From assembly GCA_047967505.1 (NCBI GenBank), contig CM106538.1: a DNA stretch of 64,000 bases; one strand, given 5' to 3'. Shown piece by piece: positions 6,755 through 32,200 of the stretch. Made by a program: the position numbers and the translations under genes. The notes beneath the pieces were generated by a model that saw only the letters and a program-made list of their open reading frames with translations, was not told where the DNA came from and made no database searches. The stretch is from Dipteris shenzhenensis. Its lineage: Eukaryota. Positions within the stretch are counted from its first letter, which is position 1; the number at the start of each line of letters is the position of its first letter.

Positions 6755-9700
6755 CTGTCAAAAAAAGAAAGTAAAACTGTTCCCGAAGCAAATCTCATGC
6801 AAGCTACAGTGTAAAGGTGTTAAAATCTATTCTCTAGAGTGGATTAAGTCAGAGTGGTTGTATATGGAGAGGATGTACCATCTTTGAACACACCATCTTT
6901 GATGTTTCATTGGAAGTCTGCTAATTGTATTCTTTAAAGCTATGACCCCAATGTGAAATAGCTCTTTGATGAAAAGTTTGAGAATAAGATAGAAAGTTCC
7001 TCATAGAGTTTCTGACCATTGGGAGGGCATTAATGCGGTTTATGCTGGACTCATAGTTTGAAAGATAACGTACTTCCTTAGAATCACTTGAGTGACCAGA
7101 AAATGTAAATCTGTACAATTAGAAAGTTTGAAAGGCATACCGCTGTCATTGGTATGAATTTCATGTAGAGTAGGCTCACCATAGAATGTAATGTCAAAAT
7201 TGAACGTCGACTTTCCTTGGTATGATATCAACTGAACTTCAAGTCGTGTAGACTTTGCTTTCTCAAGGTATGGAGTGTCACATTCTAGTGTTTCTGCACT
7301 TTCGTTGAATCTTCCTGGAATCTTTTCAGAATCCCCAAATTTACAAGAGAATGATAAAATGTGCATCAAATTCTCTCCAAACATTGTGACAGTTGTGTAA
7401 CTTTGTGTTGGTAAGATAGTTGGTGAGATATGGCTAATTACAACTGCCTCAGTCGAACCTGTAGATTTGAAAGAAGTCCATTTTGGAATAAGTTAATGTT
7501 TGTAGTTTTTACAAAGAACCAGGTTTTTAGAGATTGCATGTATGGTTATACCTGCACGAGAAATGATCAAATCAAAACATTGGTCACATAATTGCAAGCC
7601 GTGTGTACCAAGGGTTCAAATATTGTGAAGAGCCTTTCAAATTGCAAGGATATACTTTAATGGGGACTCTCGTTAAATAGATGGTGGACTGTGGGAGTGA
7701 GTGGAAAACTCCATGATGAAGACATTGATGGCCCGTCCTACACTCCTCTTGTGGGTGGAAAACTCCATGATGAAGACATTGATGGCCCGTCCTACACTCC
7801 TCTTGTGCTAGCCCTTGATACAATTATGTTTTTCTTGAATAGGGATAGCTTGATTGAATGTTGGCTAACATTGTGCAAGTTATGAGAATGGAGAGTACAT
7901 TCAAGTTGAAGAAAGTTGCATTGCTATTGGAATAAAAAAGATTGTGTGTTAGGGGACTATAAGCCATAGACGGAGATGCTGTTAGAGTGATGCATAAGGC
8001 ATAGAAGCATTTGTGTGTGGGTGTGTGAGTGGGTGGGTGAGTGGAAAAAATAAATGTAGGTTTTAGATGAAAAATGTCATAAAGCTCTAAAGACTTGAGT
8101 TGGATGAATTATTTTAAACCTAAATAAAATTGCTGACCCTTACGAAAATTTACCTTTACTCTAGAAAAAGTGTGCACAGCTACGGAAAAGAAAATGGTAA
8201 TGTAATCAAAGCAAAAAATTCATGATTATCTAGTATACAAAAGCTAGAAAATTGTGCCTCTTATGTATTTTGCATCTCTCACATTCAGTCGTGATATTAA
8301 GAATTTGTCTCATGTTTCTTGATTTTATTTATCACAATATCTTATGTTCCACCCTTAGAAAGGAAAACCAAAGAGAGCCAGTCGAGCATTTATTGTGCAG
8401 GGATATAACTTTTAGAAAGTGATCAATTGGTATGGCGGAAAGAGCTTATATCTCCACTGCCATTCGTATCTCCCCTTCTCCCAAGGACAAATAGCATGGC
8501 CAATTGGGTCTGGGGCGTACACTAGGTCTCTTGCTTACCCCTTACAAAGTTCCTTATTGGTTCGCACGAGCTTAGCACTTGAGGTTGATTATCTAAGCAA
8601 GTCCTAATAGGGGACCAAGTGGACTAAGACGAGTAACCCTTGTTCACAAAGTTGTATTTAGATTGTTTTTTTTCTTTTTCAATTTTGTGTACAGTTAGAT
8701 TTGCTCTCTACATATGGACTCGGATCCTTAACATGGCTACACAAGCTGTGTTGGGATATCTCAAGGTGTATGCCTCAGGCACACCTTGGTTTCTATGTGT
8801 GAGTGCTAGAGGCACAGTTAGGTGCCCACAAGCACAGTTAGGTGGTGGAAGAGCCACATAGGATGATTGAGAGAATCTAGGAGCAGATTGAGGAGATGAT
8901 TGTGGAGCTCTGAAGTCATCAGTGATGTCAGTGAGCATGTATGAGGTGCCTACTTAAGGACCTCACTCTTCTTCATTCTACAAGCAAGCAAGTAATGCAA
9001 GTATTCTGAGTTTGTGTCCACTCTTTGCTTTCCTTTCAGCTTTCCAACATGGTATCAGAGCCCTTTGATCCCCCTTGAGCCCATTTCTGCCACATCATCA
9101 TCTTCTTCTTCATCTTCTTCTTCCCCATCTTCCTCCTTCTTCCCAAAATCTTTGAGAGCTTGGTTCTCTGCCTACAAATGACCATTGTCCAAACCCTCTG
9201 AGCTGGAAACTCCTCTAGTATGGGTGAACTTCCACCTGCAAGTAATTGAAGAAAAAACGTCTGTGGTGGCTGCCATTCCCCAAACAGCGCATTTTTTGCC
9301 ATTTATTCTATTGCTCAATACTCCCTGCGTGCTCCGCCATTGCCTGAGCCCTCTTAGGAGTAGATGGGCGACATCAAGACGAAGATTTTGAGCCATTTTT
9401 CAGGTCATTTGGTTCAGTAACGAGGGAGAAATCGTCAAAACTCAGGTTCAGCCTGTAGCAACTCTCCCGGGCAAAAGTGCGCACCATTTTGTCCAACCTC
9501 TGTGCTGGACCCTCTCTGGTATATGAACGTTCTTTTGCTTCAGAAAGTCCTCTTTTCCTTGCTTTGAAGAGTGAGCTACAAGCCCTCCAAGTTCAGCCTT
9601 TTGGTTTTGACAGTTTTGGACAAGTTTTTGAAGATGATGCTACATAAAATGCTACTCTAGCATTTCTGGTTTTTGAAACTTTCAATAACTTCAGTACAAG

Positions 9701-12700
9701 TGTGGCTTCAGTTTTGTTTTGAATTGCTAGACCTGGTTTTGATTGGAAAGTATTCATTTTAGCCACTTCTATGAAGCATGTAAGAAGAAGCATCATTGAT
9801 TGAATATTGGTCACTAGTCTTTGCTACATCAAGTGCTCATATTTTGGAAGTCTTTCAGTTATTTTTTCCTTGTAAGAGAGATAGACACTGCTCAATATCT
9901 GGGTTAGACCCTCTCATGGCTACCCTATTGAATCTCGAGAAGTTCAATGGAAAGGGCTTCCACACATGGCAGATGAAGGTGAAATTTGCATTGATGAGGG
10001 AGAACTTATGGGGACTTGTCAAACCGACTCCTATCGCTTCTTCTACGGCCTCCAATGCTGGAGAATCCTCAACTCCAACACGACCGGCAAGGGATCCAGC
10101 TAGAGAAGAAAAAGCATACGGTATCATTGCTCTTGCTTTAGGAGATGATTATATTCACCATATCTCTGACTTGAAGTCTCCTTCGGAAGCTTGGCAGAAG
10201 CTTGACATGATTTTTGGTGCTAGTTCTCACATCTCTAAACTATTACTTAAAATCTCTTTCTTTGAATTGAAGATGGCTAGTGGTACTACTTTAGCAGCTC
10301 ATGTCAACTATATGCGGAGTCTTATGACTCAATTAGCTTCTATCAATTCTCCTGTTACTCTAGATGATGCTATGGCAGTGTTACTTAAGAGTATGCCTGA
10401 AGATTATGATCACATTGTTAGCACTTTGAAAGATCTTCCTAATCCTAATCTTGAAGGTATTATCTCTGCTCTCCAAGAAGAAGAAAGGCATATGGAGCTT
10501 AGGAAGGCAATGACACTGCTTATGCTGTAAAGGTCCAGAAGGGCAAGTATACCCCTTGCAATCACTGTGGAAAGACAAATCACCTTTCAAAGGACTGCTT
10601 CAAAATTAATCCATGCAAGCACTGTGGCAAGAACAACCATAATGAGAAGTTTTGCAGAGCCAAAGCAAAGACAGAAAATGCAAATCTACTTACAGTTAAT
10701 GAGCCTCCACAAGATGAGGCATCCTTTGAAGATTATGCATTTTAAACACATCTCTATGTATGCTCCAGATCTCTCTTTTTATGTCAAGGTACTCAGCCTG
10801 GATAGTCCTCCAAAATGAATGAAAATAAACTATTGTGTTTTGTGTGTTTTGTAAACACCTCTGGTCACCTTATGATGTAGGCCATGTGTATGTTTTGTTC
10901 CATGGTACCTCCTGCAGATATTGTGTGCATGTACATGCAGGGGAGATAACCATTGGAAGGTCTTTTTGTATCCCTTTTGTTTACCCATGGGAACCCTTGC
11001 TAGCATGAGAACCTAGCCATAGATTTATCCTTGACCACCATGAGATGGCATGAGAAACTATGAGACTAGATGTATCCTTGACATAGCCTGAGGCATTCCC
11101 TTGAGGGGGGGTTTGTTGGGATATCTCAAGGTGTATGCCTCAGGCACACCTTGGTTTCTATGTGTGAGTGCTAGAGGCACAGTTAGGTGCCCACAAGCAT
11201 AGTTAGGTGGTGGAAGAGCCACATAGGATGATTGAGAGAATCTAGGAGTAGATTGAGGAGATGATTGTGGAGCTCTGAAGTCATCAGTGATGTCAGTGAG
11301 CATGTATGAGGTGCCTACTTAAGGACCTCACTCTTCTTCATTCTACAGGCAAGCAAGTAATGCAAGTATTCTGAGTTTGTGTCCACTCTTTGCTTTCCTT
11401 TCAGCTTTCCAACAAGCTATAGCTTGTTGACTCATTATCACAATTGATAAGGGTGTTATCTGATTTAATTGTGGGCAACATCCCAGTGATTCCTCTCATA
11501 ATGTGATGAGTGTGAGTTTGGCTCAATGAAGGATTTGCACCTAATGCATCATCATTCCTCTTTTTAAGAATCAAATACCATATACCAAGAAATGCTCTCC
11601 TTTTGTAAAGCCTTGATAAATATGTCTATAGAGCATTTGTGCCTACCCTTTTTTGACCTTAAGTGGTACCGAATATTATTGTGCTTAGCCTTGCAATAGT
11701 CCATAAGGTTCTTGGCAAAGCAATAATGGGAATGGAACTATGCTATGCTAATATTACAAAGCATTACCAAGAAATCTCTAAAACGAAATGGGTTCACATA
11801 TTGTTGTATTTGTTGTCATATACTTAGTCTTCATGGAAGAAGAGCAATGGAATTTGGCATTTTGCTCATCATCAATAGATACTTACACTAGTGAGTTAAA
11901 GGTGTGGCTAGTTGTGGACTTGTTAGCCGCCTACCCCTTGCATCTTCAAATTTGGAATTGTTTAAAAAACATCACATAGAATGTTTGATGCATGTAAGGA
12001 TTCTTTTCATCCCCTTCCATTGATTGCTAATTGCTAAAACTCATAGGATGTTAAACAAACCTAATTGCCCACTAGATGGCCGTACAAAGTGATTACCATA
12101 TTTATTTGTTTCTTGATAGCATCCAAATGTTGACTTGTCCCCACGGGAGTGAAAATTATTTTTCCAAGAAGCATTATCATACTTTAGCTTGTTAATGTTA
12201 AGGGCATCAGTGTGTGGCCATGCTTTTATGGTGAAAAAATCAATTTAGTATTCTTAAATTTATCATTTCAAATTCCTTACATAGTGTTGTTTAAGTTGCC
12301 CTATGAGAGCTACATTCAAGCTGTACTAGAGGTACTGCTCGCTTCCTTGTTTATGAAATAGAGTCTCTTTTTCTTAAGACCTCTCAAGTATCAATCTACA
12401 GACAACCCATGAAGTGGTCCTAGAATATATATTGTCTCATTATGGGATCTCTATAGATGAGTTAAAGGTCATGAGGTTTTTGGGAAATACAAGGGAGCCC
12501 TCCCCTTGTTGGTTGCAATAGATATTTGACCTTTAGAATGGTTAATTTGTCCCCTCAAGCCATTGGGAAAATCATGCAATTATTCCATGGATATAGGTCA
12601 TGGATTGTTCAAACAAGATTTTGACATGACAGACTGCCCTAGAACACCTAAGTTGTATTTGGAAATCTTGAGGAGACCACGGTTGAAGATTGGTTAAAGT

Positions 12701-14227
12701 GGTGTGGAATTGGAGAGACCATGGTTGAAGATTGGTTAAAGTGGTGTGGAATTAGTCTATTGATGCACAAAGTGTGACAATAGATCTTAACTTTAGGAGA
12801 TCGGCTACAATAGCGAGATCCTTCTCTCTATGAGCCAATCTCCCTAGATTGTAACTCAAGGAGTTAGTTGGCTAGCCACACTCGTAAATAAGTCTAAAGT
12901 ACCTTTACAAGAGAGTAACCAAAGCTCAAAATAAAAAAGTCCCAAGTGCAAGACTTGTATTTCAACCCATCATATCCCATGGAAATGATGCAAATTTAGT
13001 TTGACTCATGCATAGAAAGTAAAATGCCAATTGATTGCCGTTTAGTTCTTTATAGATTATCATCTTGGCCTCCATAAACTCTCTAATGAGCCTTACTAGG
13101 CAAAAAAGGCTGGAAGAATTGTAGATGGTGGGGAGAATGCTATTGAGCTTATTCTATGCTTCAATGACTAGCCTAAATGCCAGAAGTCATGACCATGCGA
13201 GTTGATTGTATAGCTACGTCCAAATCAATTGTTTCCATGTTCAAGCGTGCACTTCAAGAGAGCAGTGTAATTATGTCCTCTTCCACCTTGGCATCTATGG
13301 TGGCCAATTGAGTTATAATACTATGGAGCTCACTAATAAAATCACTTAGCTTGACATTTTCAAAAAAGTGTAGATTATATAATTTGACTTTGAGTGCAAT
13401 AAGAGTGTGCTTGGTACTCTCTCAATAGAGTTGATCCAACTGATTCATTTGATAGCCATCAAACCATTTGATGTAGGAGGGTTTCATACTTAGCAGACCC
13501 AAATCAAGTACCTCTTGATATATGGAGGTTTGTGGCCCTATGGGGTGCTGACTAAATGAATGAGCTTAGGATGTATATTAAGAGCAAAAACGGCCAATAT
13601 TTGCTCTTCGATGTTCTATTCAGGAACATTCCCAAACTCATCCTCTAAAAACATTTCCAAACTCAACTATTTGGTATTGCTTCAACTATTTCATGCATGT
13701 ATTACTAGAATAGTCTTGTATTTGCATTGCCGTGATATGCCAACTCATTGAGGATTTGGAAGAATCCCCATATGAGGTTATAAATGTGTATACCTAGATG
13801 AATCCAGGAACCTAGATAAATGTGTATACCTAGATGAATCCAGGAACATTCCCAAACTCATCCTCTAGATTTTTCCCTCTAAGAAGGAAACTTGCGGTTG
13901 TGTGCATTGTTGGTTTGGTATTTTTTGCAACTAGTTTTCATCATAGGCATGGTGTAAATTTTGTTGTATCTGTCTCTTAAGGGAACCTCTTTTTCAAGGA
14001 AATGTCCAACTACATTGCTGAGTCACATTTACCTTCTCCATTTTTTCTTAAGGAAACCTCTTTTTCAAGAAACTGTCGAACTACACTGCTGAGTCATATT
14101 TACCTTCTCCATTTTTTCTTACCCAATAAACTAGCAATGAATTCACCACATGTACGTAGGAGTGATTTTCTAGGCAGCACTCAAATGTGTGTGTGTGTGC
14201 ACACATGCACACGTGCGCGCATACATG

Positions 14228-14282
<55 letters not shown>

Positions 14283-17200
14283 ACTCACTTACACTCATCC
14301 CCTTTGGAACCCTAGCAGTCTTTGGGTTTAGAACCTTGCATTCTTTGTGGTTGTCAGCACTTTGATTGTCCATGGGGACATCATGGATCTTTTTCCCATA
14401 TGTAAAACGAAGGACCACAATGTCCATTATGAGATTGTCTCTGCAAGACATTATGAGATTTGCCTCACATTGCATAATATGATCATGGGAAATGAATAGA
14501 CAAATACGAGTCTACTTATGAGAGAGATCACCTGACGATTACAAATGGCTGTCAGGGATGTATTGTACCATACATAATTCATAATGGCCTAAAATGGAGA
14601 AGGACTTAGATTTAAAGGCATCGGAGAGTACATCTCACCCTACAGTTTTGGTGGGAAAAAGATTAGTACTTGGGGATGGAGAAGGAAGCTCCCATTTCTT
14701 TTCCCCCTTCTTTTGTCTTGGGGGAATCTTGCCCATTCTTCATACTACACAAATTGAAGTCAAGCAGCAGCTGAAACCTTCAAGCAAATGGGGGAGCTGG
14801 AGTGAGCCTATTGGCGCTATGACACATCAATTAAGGAGCCCTTTTTGAGTATGGACAAGATGGGCAGCTTCATATATGAAGCTAGGTGTGAAACACTCAG
14901 CTCTAGCCAGGTGAGTCTTCTTATATTAGGTTCTCCATCACGAGAGAAACTCAAGTGTCCATTCGATATTACAATGGATATTGTGTCGTTCAGGTTAGAG
15001 GGCACCATGCCCTCCTTCAAAATTCTTTATGTGAAGTGACACTACTATAACTCCCAAATGAATATCCGTTGTATGAGAGGAGAGCTTACAAATTCCTACA
15101 AAGGATTTGGCAGTGGTCCATCTAATGGTGCAAATCACTGATACGATTCCATTGAATGGTTCATAGGAGCATGTGAGAAATCAGCAACGGTGGTAGTCAC
15201 AAAGCTTCGGAAAGGTGGATCTCTTTGCAAGCATGTGATGAGCATAAAGCTTGGTCGCTTGGACCTTTGGTGGTGGTCCCTTAAGTGCAAATTCTTCATG
15301 GACCTTGCTGCTGTAGGCTTGTGTATAGCTGGAAGACCTCGCTTCTCCAACTAGCAGCACATTGTTGTTATGTAATCCTAGGGATCTTAGGAGTCTCTCT
15401 AATACTGGGAATTTCTTTACACTTCCAGTATTCGTGACTACGTGAAAATAAAACCTTCCTTGTATGCGTGGCTGCTGCTAAGACTAATTATACACTTACA
15501 CACTAGTAGAGCTCATTGGATAGCTCAAAGTATATTAGAGGTTCACATTCCTTTGTGCTTATAAAATGTCTTGGAGATGGATATTGTATATGTGCAAAGT
15601 TACACTCATTTGCTTGGCAATAGCACTTGGATATCAACATAGTAGAAGCAAAAAAGGCCTGGTGGCTAATGTACCAGACATGGGTGTCGATGGAACACTC
15701 ATAGCACACACACTACCTCTGGTGATTTGTTCTTTACGATAGCCCACTAGATAAACAGGGTAGAAATGAACTGGGAATAACATCCTTCATGCTTTGAGAA
15801 ACATCAAGATCCTCCATGCACTCTATGGGCTCCGGATAGAGATCTACGCGAGGTCCTTTTGTCGTATATGACTATGGACCCCACCTTGACTGGCTTTAGC
15901 TGACCACCGACCAAGAAGCAAAAATTTCAGAATCAGGGTTGATTCGGTTGAATCGTCTGTGGGGTCTAGTTGTGAAGTGAAGAATTGTATATGTTGCAAT
16001 AGTTTTGAATTGTAGCCTATAGGTCACCTTCAATATGCAAAGACTATGATTTTTAGAGCCTAGCAGTTAGCGTGTTCATTTGGTGGGCGTGATTGTTAAG
16101 TCTATTTTGTGATCGACATAATGAATAGTGCTCAACCAAAAAATCAGCTCGACTATATTTTAAAGGAAAGCCTTGGACGTTTTTGTCACCTTCATATGGA
16201 GTGATGGCTCTGACGAGTCCATCGCCTTCGATATGCAATTGATTTGTCCTATTGTCCTAGCCTATCATCCACATATATATATGGCCCTAGTACCTCCTCC
16301 ATGGCTATGTCTTTAGATTCAATCAGTAATTCGTTGGACATATTGGTGATGATGGCAGACACCCACTTAGAAAGTTAACGTGTTGGATTGAACACCATTG
16401 TGCACAGTAGAAAAACACTATGTGGGTGATTGAAAGGGGAGGAAATGTTGTGGACTTCACATGGGAAGGGAAAGTGTGTAAGTTTGAGATTGGGGAGGGG
16501 AAATGGAGGAACGTGAATGAGCTGCCTATTAGTAGCAGTTGTGGATGCTCCAGGGCACAAATTGAACATTGTAATGGCCCCAGTGCTCACTAAATAGGGT
16601 CCTTCAAGCCCCGGAGCCTCAGCCCATGGATGATTCCGGCAAGGGCTCTCAAGCTTCCGACTCTCCAACTGTCAGGGTGGGGTCCATAGTCAAATAAGAC
16701 AAAAGGACCCCGCGTCAATCTATCCTAGGCCCACTCTATGTAGCAACCTCTTGCGCTCTCTAGTTGACGATAGGAAACTAACTCAAGAGACAACCTCTCT
16801 CATATATGGTCAACCTTTTCGACTATTACTTTATCTATTTCATTACATGACTAATTTGACATGAGCATCTCTTATGTTGTCCAAATTGGTCATGGCACCA
16901 ACAATTTACGTACATGGAATGCGCAAAAGTCTGTGTACCTTTACCCCGACTAGAAAGTAATGGATAGCCTTGAACATTACGTAGCTTCTCGTAAACACCA
17001 CGTTCGGGCTTCCACCTACCATTCGAGTCTTTGAAAACACTATAGCAGTAAGATAGGCTAGAGAAATTTTGGGCGCTAAGTTATGAATGTGTACGCGACT
17101 ACTATAAAGCTATTGGCAATCGATGAGAAAACTGTGTTAACAAGGAAATCTATCGACTGGCTAGTCTCCATTTCCAACAGTGGCTTCCCGACATGGCAAA

Positions 17201-20200
17201 GCATTCAAATGGTTCCAGGAAGGAGCGAATCTTTGTTTCTTGCACTGACCATGGGCTTCCAATCATGCTAATAATCATCTACTATTTCCACGATTCATTG
17301 TTATTCATTGTCTACTTATGGCTTGGCCCTCCTTGCTCCTTTCCGGAAGGGGATGGTTCCTTCCTTCAAGGGCCCGGCCCCTCCCTTCATGTCGCTTCCT
17401 CTTTCCTTGATTTGACCTTCCTGGTTGCAAGCTCAGCCTTTCTTGCTCCTTTCCTGAAGGGGGATGGTTTTTCCCTTCCTCGCAGTCTTGGACTTCTTCA
17501 ATTTGAGCTCCTTGTCTTTTGCATTTTTTGCCCAAATGGCAAATTGAGCTGCAGCATCTACTTTCTCGTCGTAGATAGCTATAACAAGCATGCACATTTG
17601 ATCTATCCATGACCTAGGCAATGGCAAATGGCATTCTCTACATAGCGATCTTGCATACACAAACACCCCAAAGAAAAAAACGTGCACAGGGTGGTAGCAT
17701 GTAGGCCATCGGATCTTACAGTCATCTATGATGGGGGTATGGTAGACCATGCATTTCGGACCCTACTGCACAGCAGGATGGGCATCCGATTTAACTATTG
17801 TGGTCTTTTATACCACAATCTTGCTCTGTACATGATGAAGTTGCTTCTTGATTCCTTCCTCCCTCATCCTAAGGTTGCGGATGTTCTCCTTAATCTCCTC
17901 CACTCTTTGATCACTCTGTGCAATAGCTTTATTTGAATTCCTCAGCATCTGTTGAAGCTGCTTAAATTGCTCAAAAACATCAACATGGGCCGTTTCCAAG
18001 ACTTCCACTCTAGTTTCAAAATCTCTCATGACGAAAGACTGTTGTTTAAAACTGTTGAAAGCCATGGCAAGCTCGTGCACAACCTATCGTGATCTTGTTG
18101 CAGGGTCTTGTAGCTTACTCTTTGAACTTCCAACAATGTTTCGAATAAACAACGCTCCAACTTGCTCCACCATTTGGCTACTCTCAGCATCCTTCCTAGA
18201 CTGGAGAGCTACCTCATTGTCTTCTCCTCCCCGATTGCTCTCCGCCCCATCCTTCTTGGCCTTGAAGGTCTCTCACAGTTCTTGCATCACTGCTCTAGTT
18301 TCTGCGTTCTCCCTTTTCAGCTCCTCCATCATCTCATTGCTAGCTCCTTGTCCGTGATGTCCCCATCACTTCTAAGTTCTTCAAGCTTATCTCGAAGCTC
18401 CTTGATGTGCTTCTCTGCTTCTTCTCTTTCATGCCTTTCCATGTCGCCTATTTTTTAAGTGTGACTTAGCTTGCTCTTGTGCCTACAAGGCCCTTGTTTG
18501 TGCCTCCTCTACCTTGGCTTTTGAACCCTCCTTGAGAATTTTCTCAAGTTGCACTGCCTTTGTTGCATCAGTGGCTTTCTCTTGTAGAAAAGTCACCTTC
18601 TGAGACATCTTCTTATCGTATTGCCCAAAAATCCCTTTTAGGGTAGATGTCATTAGGTGCATTACAACTCCAGTGGACTGAGATGACAATTGGGATTTCC
18701 CATCCATGCAATTCTTCAGGGTGGTTATCACGCTCTTGGAGATCGCCTTTTAAAAAGATATATCATGTCCTTTCAGTTGCTCTACTACTTCTTGAACCTA
18801 CAAGAACTTCATAGTTTCTCTCATATCAGGACATAAGTGCATTGTCTTCTTCAACACATCTTGGAGGTTTGTCGGCAAGCTAGAAAGCTTGACTCCACCG
18901 TCTTTACTAATCTGAGCATTGGGGTATACATCTAGAATATCCTGTCTCTTCCACTGCTTCTTGAAGAAGTGTGCTTGCAAATTGCCTCCATGAATGCTTG
19001 TGCATTTCCAATCACGCTTTCAGTGATGGTAATCTTCTGACCTTGACAGACTGTTTCTCCCTCCTTCATGTTCACCTCCTATACCAACCTAGTGAAGTTG
19101 CTAAGAGCATCCAAATTGGGCTTTTGAAAAGCGAGTGAGGAGCTCCCAAATGTCACGATTTCAAGATCAAGGAAGGAAAGGCTCTCGCACTTTGCTGCAG
19201 AGGGGGAGGAAAGTTTATGTGAGGAGCTCTCGAATTGTGCAGGGTCCATTAGAGAGGGGATAGAAGTTCCAAGAAGAGTGCAAGGGAGATAGAAATGGTC
19301 AAAGGGAATAGAAGATGAAATAGTGAAGGAAATGGAATAGTGGAGGCTTGAGTTTGCAGTCTAAGTCCAAGGGAGAAAGAAAGAGTCGAGAGGGATAGAA
19401 GATAAAATAGTTAAGGGAATGGGATAGTGGAGGCTTAAGTTTGTAGCCCGACTACATTGCCAAGGTGAGAGCCACTGTGGTGGTTGGCTTGAATTTTGAT
19501 TAATTCAAGGCGATAGTACTGCCTTGCATGGTAATGAGTGATTAGAGGTGGTGGCGTCTAAGATTACCAGCCATGTCTGTGGTGGCAGCTAAGATTCTAC
19601 TAGGCTGGCAGTTAATTACCAGCCACTGTAGTGGCCCGCAATTACTCACCTTCCAATTACCACCACCGGGGTTGCATGCATGATTACCACAAGTGTAGTA
19701 AATTACCAATCATCATGCTTGCATGTCAGTAGAGTACTAGAGTACATGGTAATGAGTGATTAGAGGTGATTAGGCTTCATATTTTACTTTTGTGGTAATT
19801 ACTATCCGGTGGTGGTGGCTAATCATGATTAGCCATGTCTATGGCCATCGAAATTACTAGCCACTACAGTGGCCCATAGTTACTCACCTGCCAATTACCA
19901 CCACCAGGCTTGCATGCATGATTACTACGAGTGCACTAAATTACATGTCACCGAGCTTACATGATCTATAGAGTACTAGAGTGAGAGTGCTCTCAACGGA
20001 AGCAAGAATGGAAGAAGGAGAGAGAGAGATAGAGAGCCACACAAGTTTTGGTGGGTGCAGAACCACCCTAATCTTCTTTTTCATTTATTTATATATGTGT
20101 TTGAGTATTGTACATAACCGGGGTTAAGGCACAGTGACCTTTAACCCCCACAACCTCCCACTTAAAGGACAATGTGCCTTTAAGGGAGAATAACTAGTGA

Positions 20201-23200
20201 GCATACTATCCAATGCCCATCAATACACAACAATACTCAAACTGCTGACTAGGTAGACTCTTCGTCAGCATATCTGCAGGGTTATCATCTGTATGAACCT
20301 TGACAAGCTCTATGCGCTTGTCCTCAAGTAGATGAAATGGTACCTGACCTCAATGCGTTTGTTCTTTGCATGAAAGACCGAATTCCGTGCTAGCTGAATA
20401 GCACTCATGGAATACTATGCAATGTCGGTACACCTGTATGAATCCCCAAATCTCCCACTAGCCGATCAAGCCATATAGCCTCCTTGCAACCCTCTGTGGC
20501 TGCACATACTCAGCCTCTGTGGTAGACAAAGCAATGCACTTCTGTGCGCGAGACATCCACGACACTGAACCACCTGCAAAGGTGAACACATAACCAGAAG
20601 TGGATCTCCTACTATCCACATGCCCTGCATAGTCTGAATCTGTGTACCCAAGTACACGCATGTCTCCTTTACCAAAGCAGATGCACATCTCTTTGGTACC
20701 TTTCATGTACCTCATGATGCACTTAACTGCCTCTCAATGCCTCTTTCCTAGATTAGCCATATACCGGCTAACAACTTCCACTGCAAATGCAACTGCAAAT
20801 GCAATGTCTGGTCTAGTAGCTATCATAGCATACATAAGACTCCCAACTGCTGATGCATAAGGAACCTTGGCCATCATGGCCCTTTCCTCATCTGATTTGG
20901 GACTATCTGTATGACTCAGTTTCACATATGGAGGCAATGGAGTACTCACTTCCTTCCTCCCCTCCATATTGAAACGCTGCAATACTTTTATAACATACTC
21001 TTTTTGTGAAAGCCAAAGGAGTTTCCTACTCCGATCACGTGTGATGCGCATACCAAGAATATGACCTGCAAATCCCAAATCCTTCATATCAAAGGCCTCA
21101 TGCAACTTGGCCTTTAATGCATCTAGCTCATAAGTATTCTTGCTAGCCAATAGCATATCATCCACATATAGTGCCAGGATTATCAGGCTATTATCCTTAG
21201 CCCTTTTAGTGTAGAGGCAGTGATCAATTTCACTCCTTCTAAAACCCTGGGACCGAATAAAAGCATCAAACTTCTGATACTATTCTCTAGGTGCTTGCTT
21301 AAGACCATAGAGACTCTTCTTCAGCTTGCAAACTAAATGCTCTTTGCCCTTTTCTTCAAAGCCTTCCGGCTGCACCATGTAAATTTCCTCATGCAAATCC
21401 CCATGCAAGAAAGCTGTCTTGACATCCATTTGCATAAGCTCCATATCCTCTACTGCCACTAGTCCAAGGATGCATCTAAGTGTGGTCATCTTCACAACCG
21501 GAGAGAATATCTCATCAAAGTCCACACCCTTCTCTTGCTTGAACCCTTTAGCAACCAAACGGGCCTTGTACCTAGGCACATCATCACCTGTGACCTTCAT
21601 TTTGTAGACCCATTTACATGGCAATGCTTTCTTTCCATGTGGCAAAGAAACCAAGTCCCAAGTCTTATTCTTCATAAGTGAACTCATCTCTGATTGCATA
21701 GCATACTCCCACTTGCGTTGATCCTCACGCATCATAGCCTCTGTATAGCAAGAAGGCTCCCCGCAATCAATAAGCATCACATAGTCTACCCCTGGAACAA
21801 ACCTATCAGGCGGTCTAGACACTCTAGATGATCTTCTCAAGGGCATTTCAGCTTGCTGTCCCACTTGCATATCAGCCACATTTGGCTCATCATTTCCACC
21901 AATAGATGATCCATCATCTACCCTTGATTGTATACCTGTGGGAGTACTTGGTGGTACCATTTCTTGCACATTTGGTGCATGGACAGCTTGCTGTCTATCA
22001 ACATAGGCAGGTGGATTCACATCCTGGAAAGTGATTCTCCTCATTTCCACATCCCTCATGGGTGCCTTATGCATCTTCTTCTCATTGAAGACCACATCAT
22101 GGCTGCGTATGATCTTCTTTGCTTCTGGATCCTAGAGACGATAGCCCATCTCTCCACTTTCACCATAACCTAGAAAGATGCATTTCCTAGACTTAGGATC
22201 TAGCTTCTTTCAAAGCTCTTTTGGCACATGTGCATATCCTCACACCCAAATATATGCAAATGAGAGTAAGAGGGCTTCTTTCCACTCCATGCCTCTTCAG
22301 GAATACCACCATCCAAACTCTTACTAGGTGATCTATTGATCACATGCACTGCAGTCTTCATTGCCTCAGCCCAAAAACCACCAGAAAGACTTGCATTGGA
22401 AAGCATGCATTGCAACCTTTCTTGAATGGTACGGTTCATCTTTTCTGCAACTGGACTTTGCTCTGGAGTACGAGGGGATGTGAGCTCCCTCTTAATCCCA
22501 CGTGTATCACAGAAATACTGAAAGTCATGAGAGAGATACTCTCCACCATTGTCAGTCCGTAGGCATTTAAGCGTTCTACTTGACTGATTCTCAACCAAGG
22601 CCAGCCATTTCTGAAATACCTGGAACACATCACTCTTTCGAGCTATAGCATAAGCCCACACTTTCCTAGTTGCATCATCAATGAATGTCACATAGTATTC
22701 AGCCCCGCCTAATGACCGTGTAGGCATGGGACCACATACGTCTGAATGCACCAAATAAAGCATTTCAAACTCTTTCTTTCCCCTTCTTTTATGGGCTGAT
22801 TTAGTCTGCTTCCCATAGAGACAGTGCTCACAAAATTCAAAATCAGAGAAACTCAAATGTGGTACATAACCCAAACGGCATAAGAGTTTCATTCCATTCT
22901 GGCTCATGTGCCCCAACCTGCAATGCCACAAAGAAGTGCTTGGCTGCTCGGTTATTGCAACAACATGATCAAATACCCCTGATACATGTAAGGGATACAA
23001 AGTCCCACACTTGGCACCCCTGGCCAAAAGCATAGAGCCCTTTTGAATTTTCCAACTCTGAAAGCCAAAAGTGGTGTGAAAACCAGCATCATCTAGCTGA
23101 CCCACTGAAATAAGACTCTTGGTTAGCTTAGGCACATGTCTCACATGTTTCAAAACAAATGCAGATCCATTTGCAAAAGAAAACTTTATGTCACCTGCTC

Positions 23201-26200
23201 CCACTATGTCACATGCATAGTCATTTTCAAGATGCACACAACCTGTCTTTCCACTATCATAAGTGGAGAACCATTCCCTATGGGGAGTAACATGGAATGA
23301 AGCACCAGAATCCAAAATCCAATCCTGGGAATATGCATCATCTGAAGTGGCAAGCAACTCTGCAGATAAACTAGACATGAAGAGAACGTCATTGTCACTA
23401 TCATGTGTGACTGCATTGATCTCCTTGATCTTCACTTTTCCTTTGTCATCCCTTGGACTCTCTTCCTTTTGATTTGCACCCCAATTTGCATTCTTTTTCT
23501 TATCCTTTTGCTCTCTTTTCAGCTTGTAGCAATCCTTTTTCATATGGCCCTTCTTGCCACAATGGTAACACTCAATGTTCCGTGCCCTGGATTTGCTACG
23601 AGACTTCCCCCGTGCCCTGGATTTGCTACGAGACTTCCCTCTTTTTTGGGACTTCCCCCTGAACTGTGATCTGCCCCTTTGCACATTTAAGGCTGCATCC
23701 TGCTTGTTGCCATCCATAGACTTCCGTCTAATCTCCTCGGCCAACAAGCTACCCACAACATCATCAAATTTCAGCACTGCACCAGGTGCAGAGTTACTGA
23801 CAGCTGTACGGAAGGTATCCCATGAGGATGGCAATGAACATAAGAGAAATATTGCCTTAGTCTCCGCATCAAAATTCATTTTCTGAGCCTGAAGCTGGCT
23901 GAAAATAATATTGAATTCATTCAAGTGAGAAGCAATGGAGACCCCTTCCTTCATCTGCAGCTCAAACAACCTCTTCATGAGGTAAACTTTATTAGAGGCA
24001 GTTTCCTTCTCATAAGTGGCACACAGTTTCTTCCACAAATCTTCCGTAGTCTGCTCATTTACTACTGTGAAATAAACTGACTCTGCAAGATGAAGTCTAA
24101 TAGTAGACTTTGCTAATGCATCCAACTCATTCCAATCATCCTCAGACATATCCGCAGGCTTAGCTTCAATACCTGCCAAGGGTTTAATCTGCTTCTTTTG
24201 AATAAGCACATCCCTTATTTGTTCTTTCCACAAAGAAAAGTTTGTCCCATCAAACTTTTTAATGCTGAAAAACTCCTTTTCAGACATGGAAGAGGATGCC
24301 ATGATGCAAATAAAGCAAAATCCCAAATGCTAGTGCCTGCAAGAGAGAATCACACCAAATACCAGGTGCACCCAAATGTGTATGCCACAATAGACTGAAA
24401 TATCACAAAAAACTCAAAGCTCAAAGCATCAAAAGATGCATCTGACTCATGTGCATATATCTGCTATCTGCTCATGCAATCTGCCCACTGATAAACTTCT
24501 TGGTAAATGGTAAAAGGTCTTATTTAATAGCATGTTATGAGTGTGAAACCGCATGTGAGCGAAGGGACTGACAACGATTAGGAACTAGTTAGAAAAATTT
24601 GAGCATGGCTTCGATTGGCAACCTAGAGAATTGTCTCTCCTCTAAGGCAATCTAATCTATGCTAAACTATGCTAAACCAACCGTCGAAGCGAAGAAAAGC
24701 AATAAATCATTTCTTTTTCTATGTTCATTTTAATGTGTTGGGGTTTAAGAGGCTTAAATATGCAAAAGAAGGGGTTTTGATGTAGATATGCATCCATATG
24801 AGCAAATCTGGCCCAAAAGAAAATGCCAATAAGTGCCAAATGACTCAAGCATAAACACCGTCCACTGGCATATGCATCAATAATATCTCATCCAACAGAG
24901 CATAGCACTATCAGTGCATCACCTGCAATGTGTCAAAGCTGTCCCTCAGCTTAAAATAGCATCCATATGCAAAGCGTCCATAAAAAAATAGCATCCCACA
25001 AGGCAATTTGGGCCTATCAGCGCATCCAATAAGGACCGCAATGCATCCAAATGGCCTATAAATGATCCACTGCAACCCAATGCACACCACGAATGAGCAC
25101 ACACTGCTCAAACTGCAACCAGAGTGATCTGCATAAGGTATGCTCAAGAAATCATAGTCCCACGGTAATGAGCGCTACTGAAAATAGAACCTGAGATGCC
25201 TAAAAACATGGGTGCCATTGCATAATCGGAATCAGCAAGAAAATCTGCAAATATCTCTCTTCTGCCAGAACTCCAAAATCCCAACCGATGAGTGAGAAAT
25301 GGGAGTCAACACTTATCCACTGCCATGTGGCATAAATCTAAGGTTTCAAAACCTTAGAATGAAAAATGCATAACAGAGAGACGAAATCGAATACACAGAG
25401 ATCTATAACTCTGAAAATCCTCCACCGAATCACGCAAGAACTGACAGGTAGGGGTTTTTGGGTGTCCGGAATGCAATGGGATAGACGGTTTTGGAAACCG
25501 TGGTCTCAATCATTGGGTCCAACACACGGACTGAAAAATGTTTTTGGAAACAGAGCTATCTGTAAACTCCACCGGAACTGACAGATCTGCAAATGGTTGC
25601 TCCAAACTTGAGTTCCAACACCCGGGCAAAAAACGCAGGAACTGACACAGTGAGTCAGAAATCCAATGAAATGATCCTAGATTCAGGAATGAAGGTGTTT
25701 CCAGGCTTCTGAAGTAATGTGGACACCAAAAGCAAGCAATAGTTGCCTCTACAAGTCAATATGGAGTCTCTGTCATCGAACGGAACAGGGAAAAGCTCAA
25801 AAAACGATTTTTTCTTTGAAAACACTTAACAGGCTCTCAAAACCACTTCGCAAAGCCAAAGTGACTTTTCCAAAGGTTCCTCCAAGGTCTGTGCACACTC
25901 GGATGCAAGTAAAGTCACCCACAAAGCTTCTCCTTCCTCCCACAAAGCTGCTGAGCTACAAGCATTCACGCACGCTTAGCTAGATCACCCGGGCTTTGAT
26001 ACCAGTTGAGAGTGCTCTCAACGAAAGCAAGAATGGAAGAAGGAGAGAGAGAGACAGAGAGCCACACAAGTTTTGGTGGGTGCAGAACCACCCTAATCTT
26101 CTTTTTCATTTATTTATATATGTGTTTAAGTATTGTACATAGCCGGGGTTAAGGCACAGTGACCTTTAACCCCCACATAGAGTGCATGGTAATGAGTAAG

Positions 26201-29200
26201 CATAGATAATTAGGCTTCATGATTTACTTTTGTGGTAATTACTGCTCGGTGGTGGTGGCTCTCATTAGCCACATCTGTCATGGCTAAGATTCCACCGAGA
26301 TGGCAGTCAATTACCAGCCACTGCAATGGCTTGCTCACCCACCACTGGGCGTCTACTTCATGATTAGTAGCCCGTCTAGGGTGGTGCCTAAGATTCCACC
26401 ACCATGGCCTACAATTAATATGGATGGGACCATCTGCCCCTTCTTTGCTACTGCTCCACATGATCTGCTAATTTGCTCCACACACCCTCCTCCAGCTCTT
26501 TTTTGCCCCTTCTCTACTTAGCTCCATGCTCCCTTTTCCAATTCTCATCACTCACCTACTCCCCTACTCATCTGTTGCTCAGCCACTCATCTTCACCATG
26601 CCTACTACCCCCCCCGCTCGATGCACTTTGATCCCAATGTTATCTGCCTCCTCATATAAGGTGACTACGTTGCACTCACCTGGAGTAGAAATGCTGGCAC
26701 TAGGGACACCCTTTGTTCCCATGGTCAGTTCTCCCCATATTTGCATGTCACCACCTTTTATGACATGCTCAAATTTGGCCTCTTTATGGCTGTGCTATAT
26801 GGGTTCCTCCTAGACATCAATGAAGGTCTCAAGATTTTCATAGCAGAGTACTCTCGACTTGTTTTGGGGGGTGTAATCTGAGTCCTAGCAATGTGCATGG
26901 TCTTCGGCCTCTCCATCGTCTCCTCCATTGGCTCCCTAAAAAAATTCAATGCAACAAGTTGGGCTGGTGGCAATACTGAGTTGTACAAATTTCATCTTGC
27001 TCAACGAGGCTCATAAGCACTCAGCAATGGATGGATGTAATCTTTGGGCCTCTAAGGCTCTCAGTGATATTTTAGCTCATTGGATGTAATGTTTTGGTCT
27101 CTAAGGCTCTCAGTAATTAGTGAGTTTTTATTAAATTTATGTAATCTCTTTTGTTTTAATTTGAGGCCCTCAGTATGCATTGTTGTTAACTTTTATGGCT
27201 ATGGTCGCTAGATGTAATCTTTTGGCCTTTAAGGCTCTCAGCAATTGCTGAGTTTTTAAAAATGTATGATTCTCTGTTTAATTTTTGCTAAGTATAAGTT
27301 GTTAATTTTTATATTACATGTTATTGGATGTAGATGTACATTGTAATCTCTTTTACTCAATTTTCACTCTATGAATTGTAGTTGATTATCTGGATGGCAC
27401 CACCAGGCCTCTAGTCACCGTGGTGGATCATAATACTTTTGCCCTCATTTATATTTATTGCAACAAGGACTAAAATACCAGTAAAGTAGGACTACAATTT
27501 CCTTGGTTTAGTACCAAAGTAGCGTTAAAATAGCTCCAATGGCACACCATTGTGGTTGCATGGAGATATATCTAGAAAAATAGAATTAAACTTTCAGAAA
27601 ATGCAAGTGACAATATGGCCCTTGAGGTTTACCCCTCTAGGGGCAAGGGACATATCGACATGCATTATACAATATCTACGATGCCACTGGACAAATATAG
27701 CATGTCGATATGTCCCTTGCCCCTAGAGGGGACCCCTCAAGGGCCATATTGTCAATGTGGTGGTGTTCAAAATGATAGATCGTGTCTCATTATTATGCCA
27801 AGAACCAATGTGGTGGTCTCTTCAAGCCAGCCTTGAATTTTAATGATCTTCATGGGCACGTTGCCCAGTGACAGGTGGCAAAGCTACGGCAAAAGGTTGT
27901 GTGATGATAGCTGGTCAGCTATGCGAAGTAGTGCAGAGATGCACGATGTAGTGTAGAGCTACTATGTTTTGAGCTATGCGGTGTTCAGAATAAATAGATT
28001 GCATCTCATTATTATGCCAATATGGCATCGTGACATTGGGAAAATTTCTAGTGAGAGAATGGGTCTGCACAAAAATCAAAATCTCACCCAGGAGCACATT
28101 GTGTCGCAGTCCTAAAATGGCCCAGAAAATTGTTTTACAATTGGCTAGACCCAAGCAAATGTTGACCTTGAAGCTATATAAGGTAGATTTCCATGGGGAT
28201 TATTTTACCGCTAGGATGATCTTGGGTTATTGGGCATTTAAGTTGTCTTGCATGGTGGATTTCTTTACAATTCTAAGAATTATGGTGATAATTACAAGGG
28301 GCCTCTTGAATTATGGTGATAATTATAAAGGTAATTACAAGGGGCCTGATGAAAACCACTTGGAAAATATATTTAAACTATTTTGTATTGGAAATTTCCT
28401 CACACTCATGAGTATTGTGGAAAAACTACATGATCATTAATATGGATTTATGGGATGGCCCTAATTTATTAAGTTTCAGCCATATGGTGAGATTGTTTGG
28501 GCATTATTTAATCCAAGGTGATAAACAGTGTACCGTTGGAACTATTGTCTTTAAATTGGAACAAGGGAATTGCAAACACAAGGGGAAAGAGCAATGTCTT
28601 TGATGATTATTATTTGATAATTTCTTTATGGTATTGTTTATAACAAAATTTCCTTTATGGGAATGGATTGATGCTTTCATGTTCCAATTGTCTGGCCTCT
28701 ATACTTTATGCCATCCTCCTACCCATTGGCATCTTATCACAATGTGTTATGCCTAGGATGCCATTGGCTTTTGGAAAGATTTTCTTGCCCTATGTTCTAG
28801 ACTATTCAAGTGAAAAATGGGATCTCATCTTGGATATGTGCTGAGTCAAGGCATATTTTACCCTTTGATCTATATGCAAGTTTCTATACATCATTTTTTG
28901 GGTTCTTGTGTGCAAGCCTAACATGATGCAACATCATGATTGGTTGAGAATTGATCAAAGGACAATAGGGCCTTTGATTAGTCCACATAATCCATTGGGA
29001 ATTACTCTAAGATTTTATAAGCATTTCATTAACTGTCTACATACCAACCTCTAATTATTTTTTAATAGAATGCCATGATTTGATTATGCTAGTCTGGATA
29101 GAGTGACATGGATAATGACTGTGTGCCGACATTGAAGCCTGGCTACCATAGCTTGAATGAATTGTTCTAACTTTCATTTGGTTGTGATGGTGCCAGGTGA

Positions 29201-32200
29201 GTTGGCATACCTCTCTATCAGGTTTGCATTGAAAAAACAAGGCATGAAGATACAGTGTGGATAGCTTTGAGGAGCACTCTACGGTGGATCATTTCCAACT
29301 ATTGATAAATAGGATTGGACATTCTATTGGAGACTAGTCATGAGTATTATTTTACTTTTTGCAATTTACTGACATGAATGTGAGTATGTAAATTGACTCC
29401 CACTTTGACTTTATGCTAGAAGGGTCGATGTGGTGATAGATTATTCTCACTTATACAATGTTAAGAGCAATGATATATGATTGTATTTGGTTTATTGGTA
29501 CATTGAGAATTGATTCAGTAGTATAGTTATAGGACAAACACACACACACACAATATCTTGTGGAGTTAAAGGTGGTATGGCATGTAAACTCCACAATATC
29601 TTGTGGAGTTCAAGGTGGTATGACATGTACTTTTTTTAGAAAAAACTCCACAATATCTTGTGGAGTTAAAGGTGGTATGGCATGTACTTAATCACTATTT
29701 TGTAAAAGGTGCACTTATCCACTTTGCCTTTGAGCTTGAATCTAAACCTATTGGCACATGATCATAGCACCTACAACTAAATACTCTTACACATCATCTT
29801 GTTTTTAATGAAGATTTGTGCAAAGTCAAGTTCTTTAATGCCTTAATGTGGCATCTATTAATCATATAAGCACTTGTAGATATTTTTCTACTCTAGAAAT
29901 GCATTTGCATTGCCATCTCTTTCAACATAGACCTAGTGACCTAAACTGGGTGCTTAATAGAGGAATATAGATAGTGGTTGCAATTCAAAATTTTTGAGGA
30001 GTGTAGGCAGTGGTGAACTTTGATTCAAGCCTTGTTTATTGTATAATGACTTGCAATCAACCTTTAAGTTAACCTCTTTGGCTCTTATTAGGACTTTGAA
30101 CTTTTGTCACTTTCTTGAACTCTAGCAACCTTGAGAAATTTCTTTATTTTTGCTCAAAATATGCACCCAAAAATTATGTGCAGATTGCACTTGATTTCCA
30201 TTACATTATTAAGTATATCATAAGGTTGTATGGGATCTAAGGAGTTGACCATAAGAAGTTTCTTGGGGTAAATGTGATGTACTCTCTTGTGCCAAAGATC
30301 TATACTGAGTTGCTCTATTCTTCTCTATCATCAACTTGGAATCAAGTGTATAAAGGATTCCATGTTTGCTACCTATAAGACAACAACTCATAAATGGATC
30401 CTTTATAGTGTTTTATGCTTTGTGAAGTTTACATGAGTTGAATCATCATAGAAGACTAAAATAGGAAGAAATTTCTTCCAATGGCTTAGCATTCATCTAA
30501 CATTTGCATACATTGTTCATGTGTAGCAAACAATATTTGTACTATTGTCCTTTATATCATTGCAACTTCCATCACATGTACGAAACTTAACAATACAAAA
30601 CCATCCTCTATGAGACTATCATGAGTGACAATCTTTGGGTATCCCATGAATTTAGTAAGTGATCAAGGGGTTCTTCAATGCAATGATCCACCATTTGACA
30701 CAAAGGCATATGATCATTCATAAGAAGTGATTGGTGTAATATCCATAGGTGAATGTCCAAAGTGGAGTACACCAATCGGATCTGGATATGTACCTTGAAG
30801 AAGATAATAGGATTCATTGGGACCAACAATTGCATTCTACATTGTAGGCATTTAGTACGGCATATAAGATTTCTACTAACTAAATATTGATTTATTTTAC
30901 TTATGGACTAGAGGCTATGGTGCCTCTGGAATTCATGTTTCTATTGAAGAGTGGTTGAGTTTGGTAGATCTTGAGGAGCATAGGCTTTGCTAGTTGTGCT
31001 ACTTTGGGAGAGAAGAGCCTACATGGCTTGTGAAATGCAAAGGTGGTGCAGCACAGATGTATGTGCGCATACAGAATATGGGTAGATAGGACTATCAAGT
31101 TTAAGATGTTTAGGCTTGGAAATATTTTCGGATGTTCAAATCTCACATTATACAAATGTATACATATTTATACAAGCATGTGTGAAGATGTGTACATGTG
31201 CATATATATGTAGCATGCAAAGGCACGTGCATAAATGTACATGCACATGTGCATAAATGAATAATCAAGACATTCACACATGCGTGCATATATGCACAAA
31301 CCACATGCATAAGTGAACGTAGACATTAACTACGTAGTAAACACATGGTCATTCCTACCTCTTTTTATTATATTACATGGTTTCTTGCACTTTTTCTCAT
31401 TTTCTAAACAATATTCTTTGTAATTAGAAGTAATCTTTATGTTTTTAGGTGGAGATTAATGTGTCCATGTAAAGCATATATGAATAATAGTTTCAAGAAA
31501 TTTCTAACATGTAGGTCACTTACCTTGCAATAAGACAATATGGTCTTGTCCAAAAATTTGCATCCCCTTGTACGTAACGTTTATCTTGTAGTTGCCAGTG
31601 GAATCTAGTTGGAAAGGAAATGTGTACTTTCCATTATTATTATCATATGGAACTCCAGAATATGCATCTAATGATTTGTAACTTTTCAAGGAAACCATGA
31701 AGCCACCCCCTCCAAGTGTGCAATTGTTTCCAAAGGAATCCATTGCTTGAATGACAAGTACTCCATAGCTACCCACAAGAATTCTCTCTCCTAAGTTTAT
31801 AGTGTATGTACACTTTGAAGCATCTATGGCACCTACAAAATCAATTTGTATTTCAAGATAACATTTTCTTATATATATAAAGTATACCTATTCAACCAAG
31901 TTTTCACAAATAATCATAAGACTATTTTGTTTAGAAGCAACACATTTTGAGAAATTTATTGTGATTTTCAAAGACAAAAAATGATTTATGTACTTACATC
32001 ACCAACTCAAAGACCAATTTCTATATTAATATCAAGAGGGACTCTTATTAATTTTCAACTATTGTAGATCAAAATATCATCTATAATGCTTTCCCCAATT
32101 GTGCTTGATTAGGCTTCTAGACTTGGAATATCAATATTTTCTAGGGGGATAAATGCCTCATGGCGTGGGACAAAACTAGTTATTGCTCTTTTTGTCTTAG

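Follow-up and report, generated by a model that had tools for sequence, protein, structure and literature searches.

The closest described systems are RING-type ubiquitin ligases and the coiled-coil proteins of plant transposable elements (TEs). Plant-type RING-H2 ligases (PF13639; for example rice EL5, 1iym, and RLIM/RNF12, 6w9a) have a finger with zinc ligands in C3H2C3 order, commonly accompanied by a transmembrane/GLD region. In Bre1/RNF20/HUB1 a long helical coiled coil stands directly before a C-terminal RING; these proteins are much longer than the one discussed here, their RINGs are of the C3HC4 type, and oligomerisation would join their fingers. Open reading frames (ORFs) in TE context also encode extended coiled coils with predicted oligomerisation, namely VANC of VANDAL, the Athila domain and TnpA of En/Spm; these are poorly conserved and lineage-restricted, and the passages on them in PMC13547354 describe no RING finger in any. 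Here we examine a decayed ORF on the minus strand of a stretch of 64,000 nucleotides (the window) from contig CM106538.1 of Dipteris shenzhenensis (assembly GCA_047967505.1). A preliminary description, made from the letters of the window alone, had seen in this ORF a coiled coil followed by a RING-H2 finger, and had proposed that it is an accessory ORF of a mobile element encoding a ubiquitin ligase or, alternatively, a retrocopy. We read the locus, with a probability of roughly 45%, as a dead intronless pseudogene of a taxonomically narrow coil/RING-H2 family, and found no sign that a TE encodes it.

The main frame (Table 1) is a coding relic, stops being depleted in one frame only. That it is broken by stops, as first described, is real: its 12 internal stops, at codons 74, 90, 179, 197, 211, 213, 216, 218, 249, 312, 404 and 419, compare with about 34 in base shuffles (34.5 +/- 5.5 in mononucleotide shuffles, with 13 stops or fewer in 0 of 2000). 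Equally long frames across the window are a stricter control, because the window is full of coding relics; among 1250 such frames, 5.7% contain 13 stops or fewer. The C-terminal half (18083-17436) is interrupted by 2 stops over 216 codons, where the other minus frames have 9 and 15, and so low a number appeared in 0 of 5000 shuffles, which give 13.6. Support for the N-terminal half (19019-18084) is weaker: it contains 10 stops in 312 codons, the other minus frames 21 and 19, and 36 of 5000 shuffles have 10 or fewer. Five of the main-frame stops fall inside a local detour that is open in another frame, which implies two compensating indels.

Met 19069, proposed as the start, does not belong to the main frame; it is present in a third frame (19078-18932), which extends, interrupted by one stop, to an upstream ATG at 19249. 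The frameshift from this possible extension into the main frame lies somewhere within 18932-19019, and no homolog of the extension is found among the matches of a protein search covering 1.84 billion representative proteins. Twelve in-frame stops, three or more frame changes and the loss of two zinc ligands out of eight leave the window copy unable to make the protein.

Homologs of the C-terminal part were found in the same protein search. An exhaustive phmmer run over 1,835,955,588 representative proteins returned four at E<=0.001: P0002 (189 aa, E 1.9e-25, 39% identity), P0003 (60 aa, E 7.6e-15, 69%), P0004 (74 aa, E 6.2e-08, 72%) and P0005 (301 aa, E 3e-04, 23%). All are singletons from raw run assemblies, each 90% cluster consisting of one sequence on one contig, and together they cover codons 314-514 of the main frame only. 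In pairwise BLASTP, P0002 aligns with codons 324-466 (38% identity, E 2e-33) and P0005 with codons 313-472 (22% identity, E 9e-13). The alignment of P0002 runs unbroken from the coil into the finger, so there is no intron in that part of the locus, which is thus intronless over codons 324-466. As for the long heptad-rich segments of the preliminary description, a clear heptad pattern (by a crude a/d score) is present in frame residues ~337-400, which align to an 86-residue high-confidence helix in the model of a homolog; outside these residues the frame is merely charged and helix-prone.

The peptide quoted in the preliminary description matches the main frame exactly, and the reported spacing of its Cys and His residues, C-x2-Y-x14-C-x-H-x2-H-x2-F-x10-C-x2-C, is exact as well. 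Ligand 2 is Tyr (TAC, 17744-17742) and ligand 6 is Phe (TTC, 17675-17673), and the window copy thus presents six of the eight ligands of the C3H2C3 pattern of zf-RING_2 type. It had been predicted, from the sequence alone, that the two missing ligands are decayed cysteines, each codon being one base from a Cys codon. Both P0002 and P0005 have Cys at exactly these positions, so that independent homologs, though no consensus of genomic copies, bear out the prediction. P0005 retains all eight ligands, in the arrangement C-x2-C-x14-C-x-H-x2-H-x2-C-x10-C-x4-C with x4 in the last pair, and its finger is followed by LPKSW, the counterpart of LPRSW in the window. P0002 is canonical at ligands 1-6 and ends shortly after a last pair of the form C-x-C.

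Several kinds of comparison point to the nature of this finger. When the family profile was compared with PDB chains, the RING-H2 ligases RLIM (E 0.04) and EL5 (E 0.06) ranked first, with ligands in register, and RING proteins made up 15 of the 29 rows at E<=10. The Pfam family zf-rbx1 scores 13.5 bits with P0002 and 16.1 bits with P0005 (cutoff 31), and neither the window copy nor the homologs reach a curated Pfam gathering threshold for RING. The best single Pfam match of P0005 is PHD (E 0.0038, 17.6 bits, cutoff 24), and a single-sequence PDB search was topped by DPF3 (E 0.07). PHD fingers such as that of DPF3 are likewise small cross-brace fingers with two zinc ions, but their consensus is C4HC3, whereas that of the present family is C3H2C3. 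Since His at both ligands 4 and 5 is the signature of RING-H2, this consensus argues for RING-H2 rather than PHD.

Predicted structure leads in the same direction. The AlphaFold2 (AF2) model of P0005, built on a four-row alignment, has a mean predicted local distance difference test (pLDDT) of 60.7; it contains an 86-residue helix (residues 2-87, block-mean pLDDT 81-94) and a finger (residues 110-160, pLDDT 64-72) with short strands and a helix starting from ligand 5. The top Foldseek rows for this model are RING and PHD fingers, EL5 being superposed over 51 columns with a template-modelling (TM) score of 0.68 and a root-mean-square deviation (rmsd) of 2.0 Å. In VIA-align, 54 of 659 chains reach Z>=5, and the top of the list is occupied by RING domains (Z 5-6.3, rmsd 1.8-2.6 Å, 48-56 residues). 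The ten best family-bearing matches in the ESM Atlas are all RING clusters, with scores of 0.82-0.86 that make them leads only. A predicted homodimer of P0005 residues 1-170 scored 0.12, compared with a mark of 0.32, and speaks neither for self-association nor against it. The weak matches from Pfam, PDB profiles, folds and the language model agree on RING, none being significant alone. Together with the cysteines of both longer homologs, they favour the RING-H2 interpretation given in the preliminary description, and a divergent RING-H2 appears to be the best reading of the family, one that stays below curated thresholds of membership.

Set beside the plant-type RING-H2 ligases, the family shares the C3H2C3 order and spacing (in P0005) and the register of the best PDB profile matches, and its predicted finger superposes, below significance thresholds, on RING domains; its scores are, however, far below the Pfam cutoff and the window copy is short of two ligands. 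In contrast to the usual RING-H2 consensus, the family lacks Pro in the last C-P-x-C pair as well as a conserved Trp following ligand 6, and in P0005 the usual C-x2-C is C-x4-C. Its finger follows a long coiled coil, not a transmembrane/GLD region. This is the layout of Bre1/RNF20/HUB1, but Bre1/HUB1-type proteins are absent from the four phmmer matches and the likeness is one of architecture. Unlike for the coiled-coil proteins of TEs, no link to element termini or enzymes was found for the window ORF.

P0003 and P0004 allow us to trace back part of the decay. They match adjoining parts of the main frame at about 70% identity and lie on equally long contigs, so they probably come from the same contig and represent a second decayed copy. 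P0003 terminates precisely at window stop 419, a position occupied by Gln in P0002 and by Glu in P0005, and its residue at window stop 404 is Leu. Stop 419 is therefore older than the divergence of the two copies, and stop 404 is found in the window copy alone. Given the shared premature stop, the window copy was probably already disabled when it was copied, or it is common by descent with a related species. Three histories would account for the shared stop: a dead element was amplified, a pseudogene was duplicated, or related species carry orthologous pseudogenes. P0004 keeps to the main frame of the window as far as about 17487 and then to another frame as far as about 17398, which means that one of the two copies carries an indel there. 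A basic tail is indeed present, as had been described, but it is readable in two frames and its exact Lys-rich reading is uncertain; within it we found a 110-bp direct duplication (17321-17352 / 17431-17462).

Other searches added no relatives. A word-index protein search with the read-through frame gave no match at near lengths; at shorter lengths it gave none either, yet there it missed P0002-P0004, which were in range, and it is therefore uninformative on copy number. The profile version of this search returned only P0002 and P0005, both its own input. None of 357 pattern matches in metagenome contigs and none of 85 in viral contigs was confirmed as a related locus. Four metagenome loci obtained with a degenerate DNA pattern of the finger were rejected as chance matches, having neither finger nor coil. 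A giant-virus origin was considered because the top ESM Atlas cluster is viral, and was likewise rejected: the score is below 0.9, the scan of viral contigs was empty and there is no viral gene context. An 88-codon N-terminal fragment showed low recognition in the ESM Atlas, with clusters from unrelated taxa, and is uninformative. Single-fragment Pfam matches (CBM_48, TACC_C, EzrA and others) were all below cutoff, and we read them as coiled-coil or compositional noise.

Table 1. Features of the decayed ORF and of its upstream region (positions in the window; LTR, long terminal repeat; RT, reverse transcriptase).
Feature	Position	Strand	Description
Basic Lys/Arg/Glu-rich tail	17305..17613	minus	readable in two frames
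Main decayed frame	17433..19019	minus	529 codons; 12 internal stops and terminal stop
Degenerate RING-H2 finger	17631..17753	minus	6 of 8 ligands left
Helical/coiled-coil segment	17808..18083	minus	91 stop-free codons; homologous to long helix of P0002 and P0005
Local frame detour ([30 protein letters not shown]...)	18329..18454	minus	41 codons open in another frame
Possible N-terminal extension, other frame	18932..19249	minus	ATG 19249-19247; one stop at 19079-19081
87-bp repeat	19277..19446		1.9 copies, 83-85% identity; directly upstream of possible ATG
Tandem array, first part	19527..19981		period 238 bp; cut by Copia insertion
Copia LTR retrotransposon	19982..26177	minus	171-bp LTRs with 97.7% identity; TAGAG target-site duplication; gag-protease-integrase-RT
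Tandem array, remainder	26178..26330		beyond Copia insertion; about 2.5 copies in all, 74-82% identity

Next, we examined the genomic setting. Remnants of Copia and Gypsy elements abound in the eukaryotic DNA of the window, so the transposon surroundings noted earlier are confirmed. The ORF is flanked by two exons of a filamin/IPT-repeat gene (7043-7492 and 31519-31887), which are on the minus strand like the ORF itself, and any element carrying the ORF must consequently fit inside that intron. The tandem array of about 240 bp reported beside the ORF is real, with a slightly shorter period, but small. It became visible by BLAST after a 6.2-kb Copia element had been removed in silico; TRF did not report it at its score threshold. 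This Copia element is a later insertion into the array and is unrelated to the ORF. It is nearly complete, with a 709-codon open gag-protease-integrase frame (22203-24329) and a reverse transcriptase split over two further frames (21283-22131 and 20737-21279).

The proposal that the ORF is an accessory of a mobile element found no support in this intron. A Pfam scan of 24 six-frame read-throughs of 11400-17500 and 26150-31600 detected neither pol nor transposase; the sole match to a TE protein was a faint piece of Copia gag near 13.3 kb, and two low-complexity matches on a CT repeat also passed. No pair of LTRs or terminal inverted repeats (TIRs) bracketing the ORF was found. A sensitive BLAST of one flank against the other (7493-17432 vs 26178-31518) yielded no match at E<=0.01, and the zones where ends might lie have no direct repeat of at least 10 nt in common; given the uncertain boundaries of any such unit, these are weak tests. 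Neither the read-through scan nor the flank comparison therefore reveals a fixed link to TE termini or pol within the intron segment, and the window contains one copy of the ORF. The role against host silencing factors that had been attached to the ORF is pure speculation.

The retrocopy alternative agrees with the locus being intronless where it can be aligned, but poly-A and target-site duplication are absent. An old copy may have lost both, and we take the locus to have originated as a pseudogene, by duplication or retroposition, that no longer shows its flanking hallmarks.

A number of results weigh against our reading of the locus as a pseudogene of a narrow RING-H2 family. Concerning the finger, the zf-RING_2 scores of P0002 and P0005 are 12.1 and 15.4 bits at a Pfam cutoff of 27.3, the window copy matches no RING family in Pfam even at E<=10, and every RING match lies below its own significance threshold: Foldseek gives no match at E<=0.001, VIA-align places 0 of 659 chains at Z>=8, and all ESM Atlas scores are below 0.9. 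Concerning the family, the N-terminal ~310 codons have no match in the 1.84-billion-protein search and no functional parent gene is known, the sole relatives being four raw-assembly singletons, a pattern that is also expected of repeat-borne, unannotated ORFs. Concerning the mode of copying, 16701-17433 contains no A/T run as long as 6, and the flanks share no direct repeat of at least 10 nt. Moreover, the upstream tandem repeats, the TE-rich surroundings and the second copy with its shared stop fit a non-autonomous element equally well.

Such an element is the main competitor. The ORF may have been the accessory or cargo of a mobile element, now decayed and probably non-autonomous, to which the 238-bp and 87-bp repeats belonged and whose intact copies would have encoded a RING-H2 ligase serving the element; we consider this possible but doubtful. 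It would account for an intronless ORF directly behind tandem repeats in a TE-filled intron, and a second copy with the same premature stop 419 is expected if an already defective master was amplified. The relatives all come from raw assemblies and none from an annotated proteome, which fits sequence masked as repeat by annotators, and coiled-coil accessory proteins (VANC, the Athila domain, TnpA) are known in plant TEs according to PMC13547354. Yet the whole 24-kb intron segment offers no linked pol, transposase, LTR, TIR or target-site duplication, the 64-kb window holds a single copy, and each relative's 90% cluster is one sequence on one contig. The main text of the Arabidopsis survey of TE products (PMC13547354) contains neither the word 'RING' nor the word 'ligase', and full-text searching of the accessible literature yielded no TE-encoded RING ligase. 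Unlikely in our view is the more far-reaching version, in which an undescribed mobile element of plant type carries the entire coil/RING-H2 family as cargo, with the tandem repeats as its 5' region and with intact copies making a transposon-encoded ubiquitin ligase (E3) that marks, for example, a host silencing factor for degradation.

A different kind of element would be a non-LTR retroelement resembling long interspersed nuclear elements (LINEs), whose ORF1-like nucleic-acid chaperone would use the finger for binding RNA or protein and not for ubiquitin transfer. The minus-strand order of tandem repeats, coiled coil, small domain and basic tail recalls the mouse L1, where ORF1p stands behind tandem monomers in a similar layout. 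However, all frames of 14400-17500, downstream of the ORF, are free of endonuclease or reverse-transcriptase remnants, the 3' end is neither polyadenylated nor A-rich, and the ligand pattern and fold matches of the finger are those of RING-H2, not of a CCHC knuckle or an RNA recognition motif, which makes this origin very improbable. It is even harder to believe that the locus is no gene relic at all but a chance open stretch in repeat-derived DNA with coincidental Cys/His spacing. The share of window frames that are equally poor in stops, the modest stop depletion of the N-terminal half and its want of homologs would agree with chance, but neither the homology of the C-terminal half (E 1.9e-25 in the complete protein library, E 2e-33 pairwise), nor Cys at exactly the two predicted positions in both aligned homologs, nor 2 stops where shuffles have 13.6, would. 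For codons 313-528 we regard chance as refuted; it is possible only for the N-terminal ~310 codons.

Other parts of the window deserve brief mention. Exons with IPT/TIG and Filamin/ABP280 repeats are found at 7043-7492, 31519-31887, 61060-61485 and 63523-63897, all on the minus strand; they are long and open and are parted by TE-filled gaps of 24 kb and more. The four look like one host gene with giant introns. Filamin repeats are found in plant GEX2 gamete-adhesion proteins, and papers linking GEX2 and filamin exist. About 700 bp past the 3' end of the ORF, an 882-bp stretch (15840-16721) between 51-nt inverted repeats (88% complementarity) resembles a miniature inverted-repeat transposable element. 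A small unit at 8749-11420, with 307-bp LTRs of 98.4% identity and a Copia-type gag ORF (9784-10527) as its sole content, looks like a non-autonomous Copia derivative. A fragment of a second Copia copy (1-1167) lies in inverse orientation to the element at 20-26 kb, with which it shares 80-88% identity.

Farther along, direct repeats of ~1.1 kb (37427-38757 / 53475-54497, 85-87% identity) surround minus-strand remnants of Gypsy gag, RNase H and integrase (45774-52314). Purine-skewed tandem arrays with a period of about 96 bp occupy 41793-42902 and 43524-45288, their GC skew reaching 0.67. The 1.8 kb at 56100-57900 have 20% G+C and match themselves in direct and inverted orientation at 73-81%, as an AT-rich satellite or palindromic repeat. 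A palindrome of 147 bp is present at 27608-27754; its inner arms (37 nt) are 95% complementary and its outer arms (27 nt) 89%.

An intact member of the family would consist of a long helical coiled coil, a C-terminal RING-H2 finger of C3H2C3 type and a basic tail. Its coiled coil would self-associate and so bring the fingers together, and the finger, binding two zinc ions in cross-brace fashion, would recruit a ubiquitin-charged conjugating enzyme (E2). Judged by family resemblance, such a protein would act as a RING-type E3 ligase. At the present locus, the Copia element inserted later, into the short tandem array just upstream.

As it stands, the locus would be an ordinary pseudogene of a divergent, lineage-restricted RING-H2 family, useful mainly as annotation. 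The intact homolog P0005 offers a ready test object. Should it prove true that a mobile element carries the family, a transposon with its own ubiquitin ligase would represent a new kind of counter-defence against host silencing.

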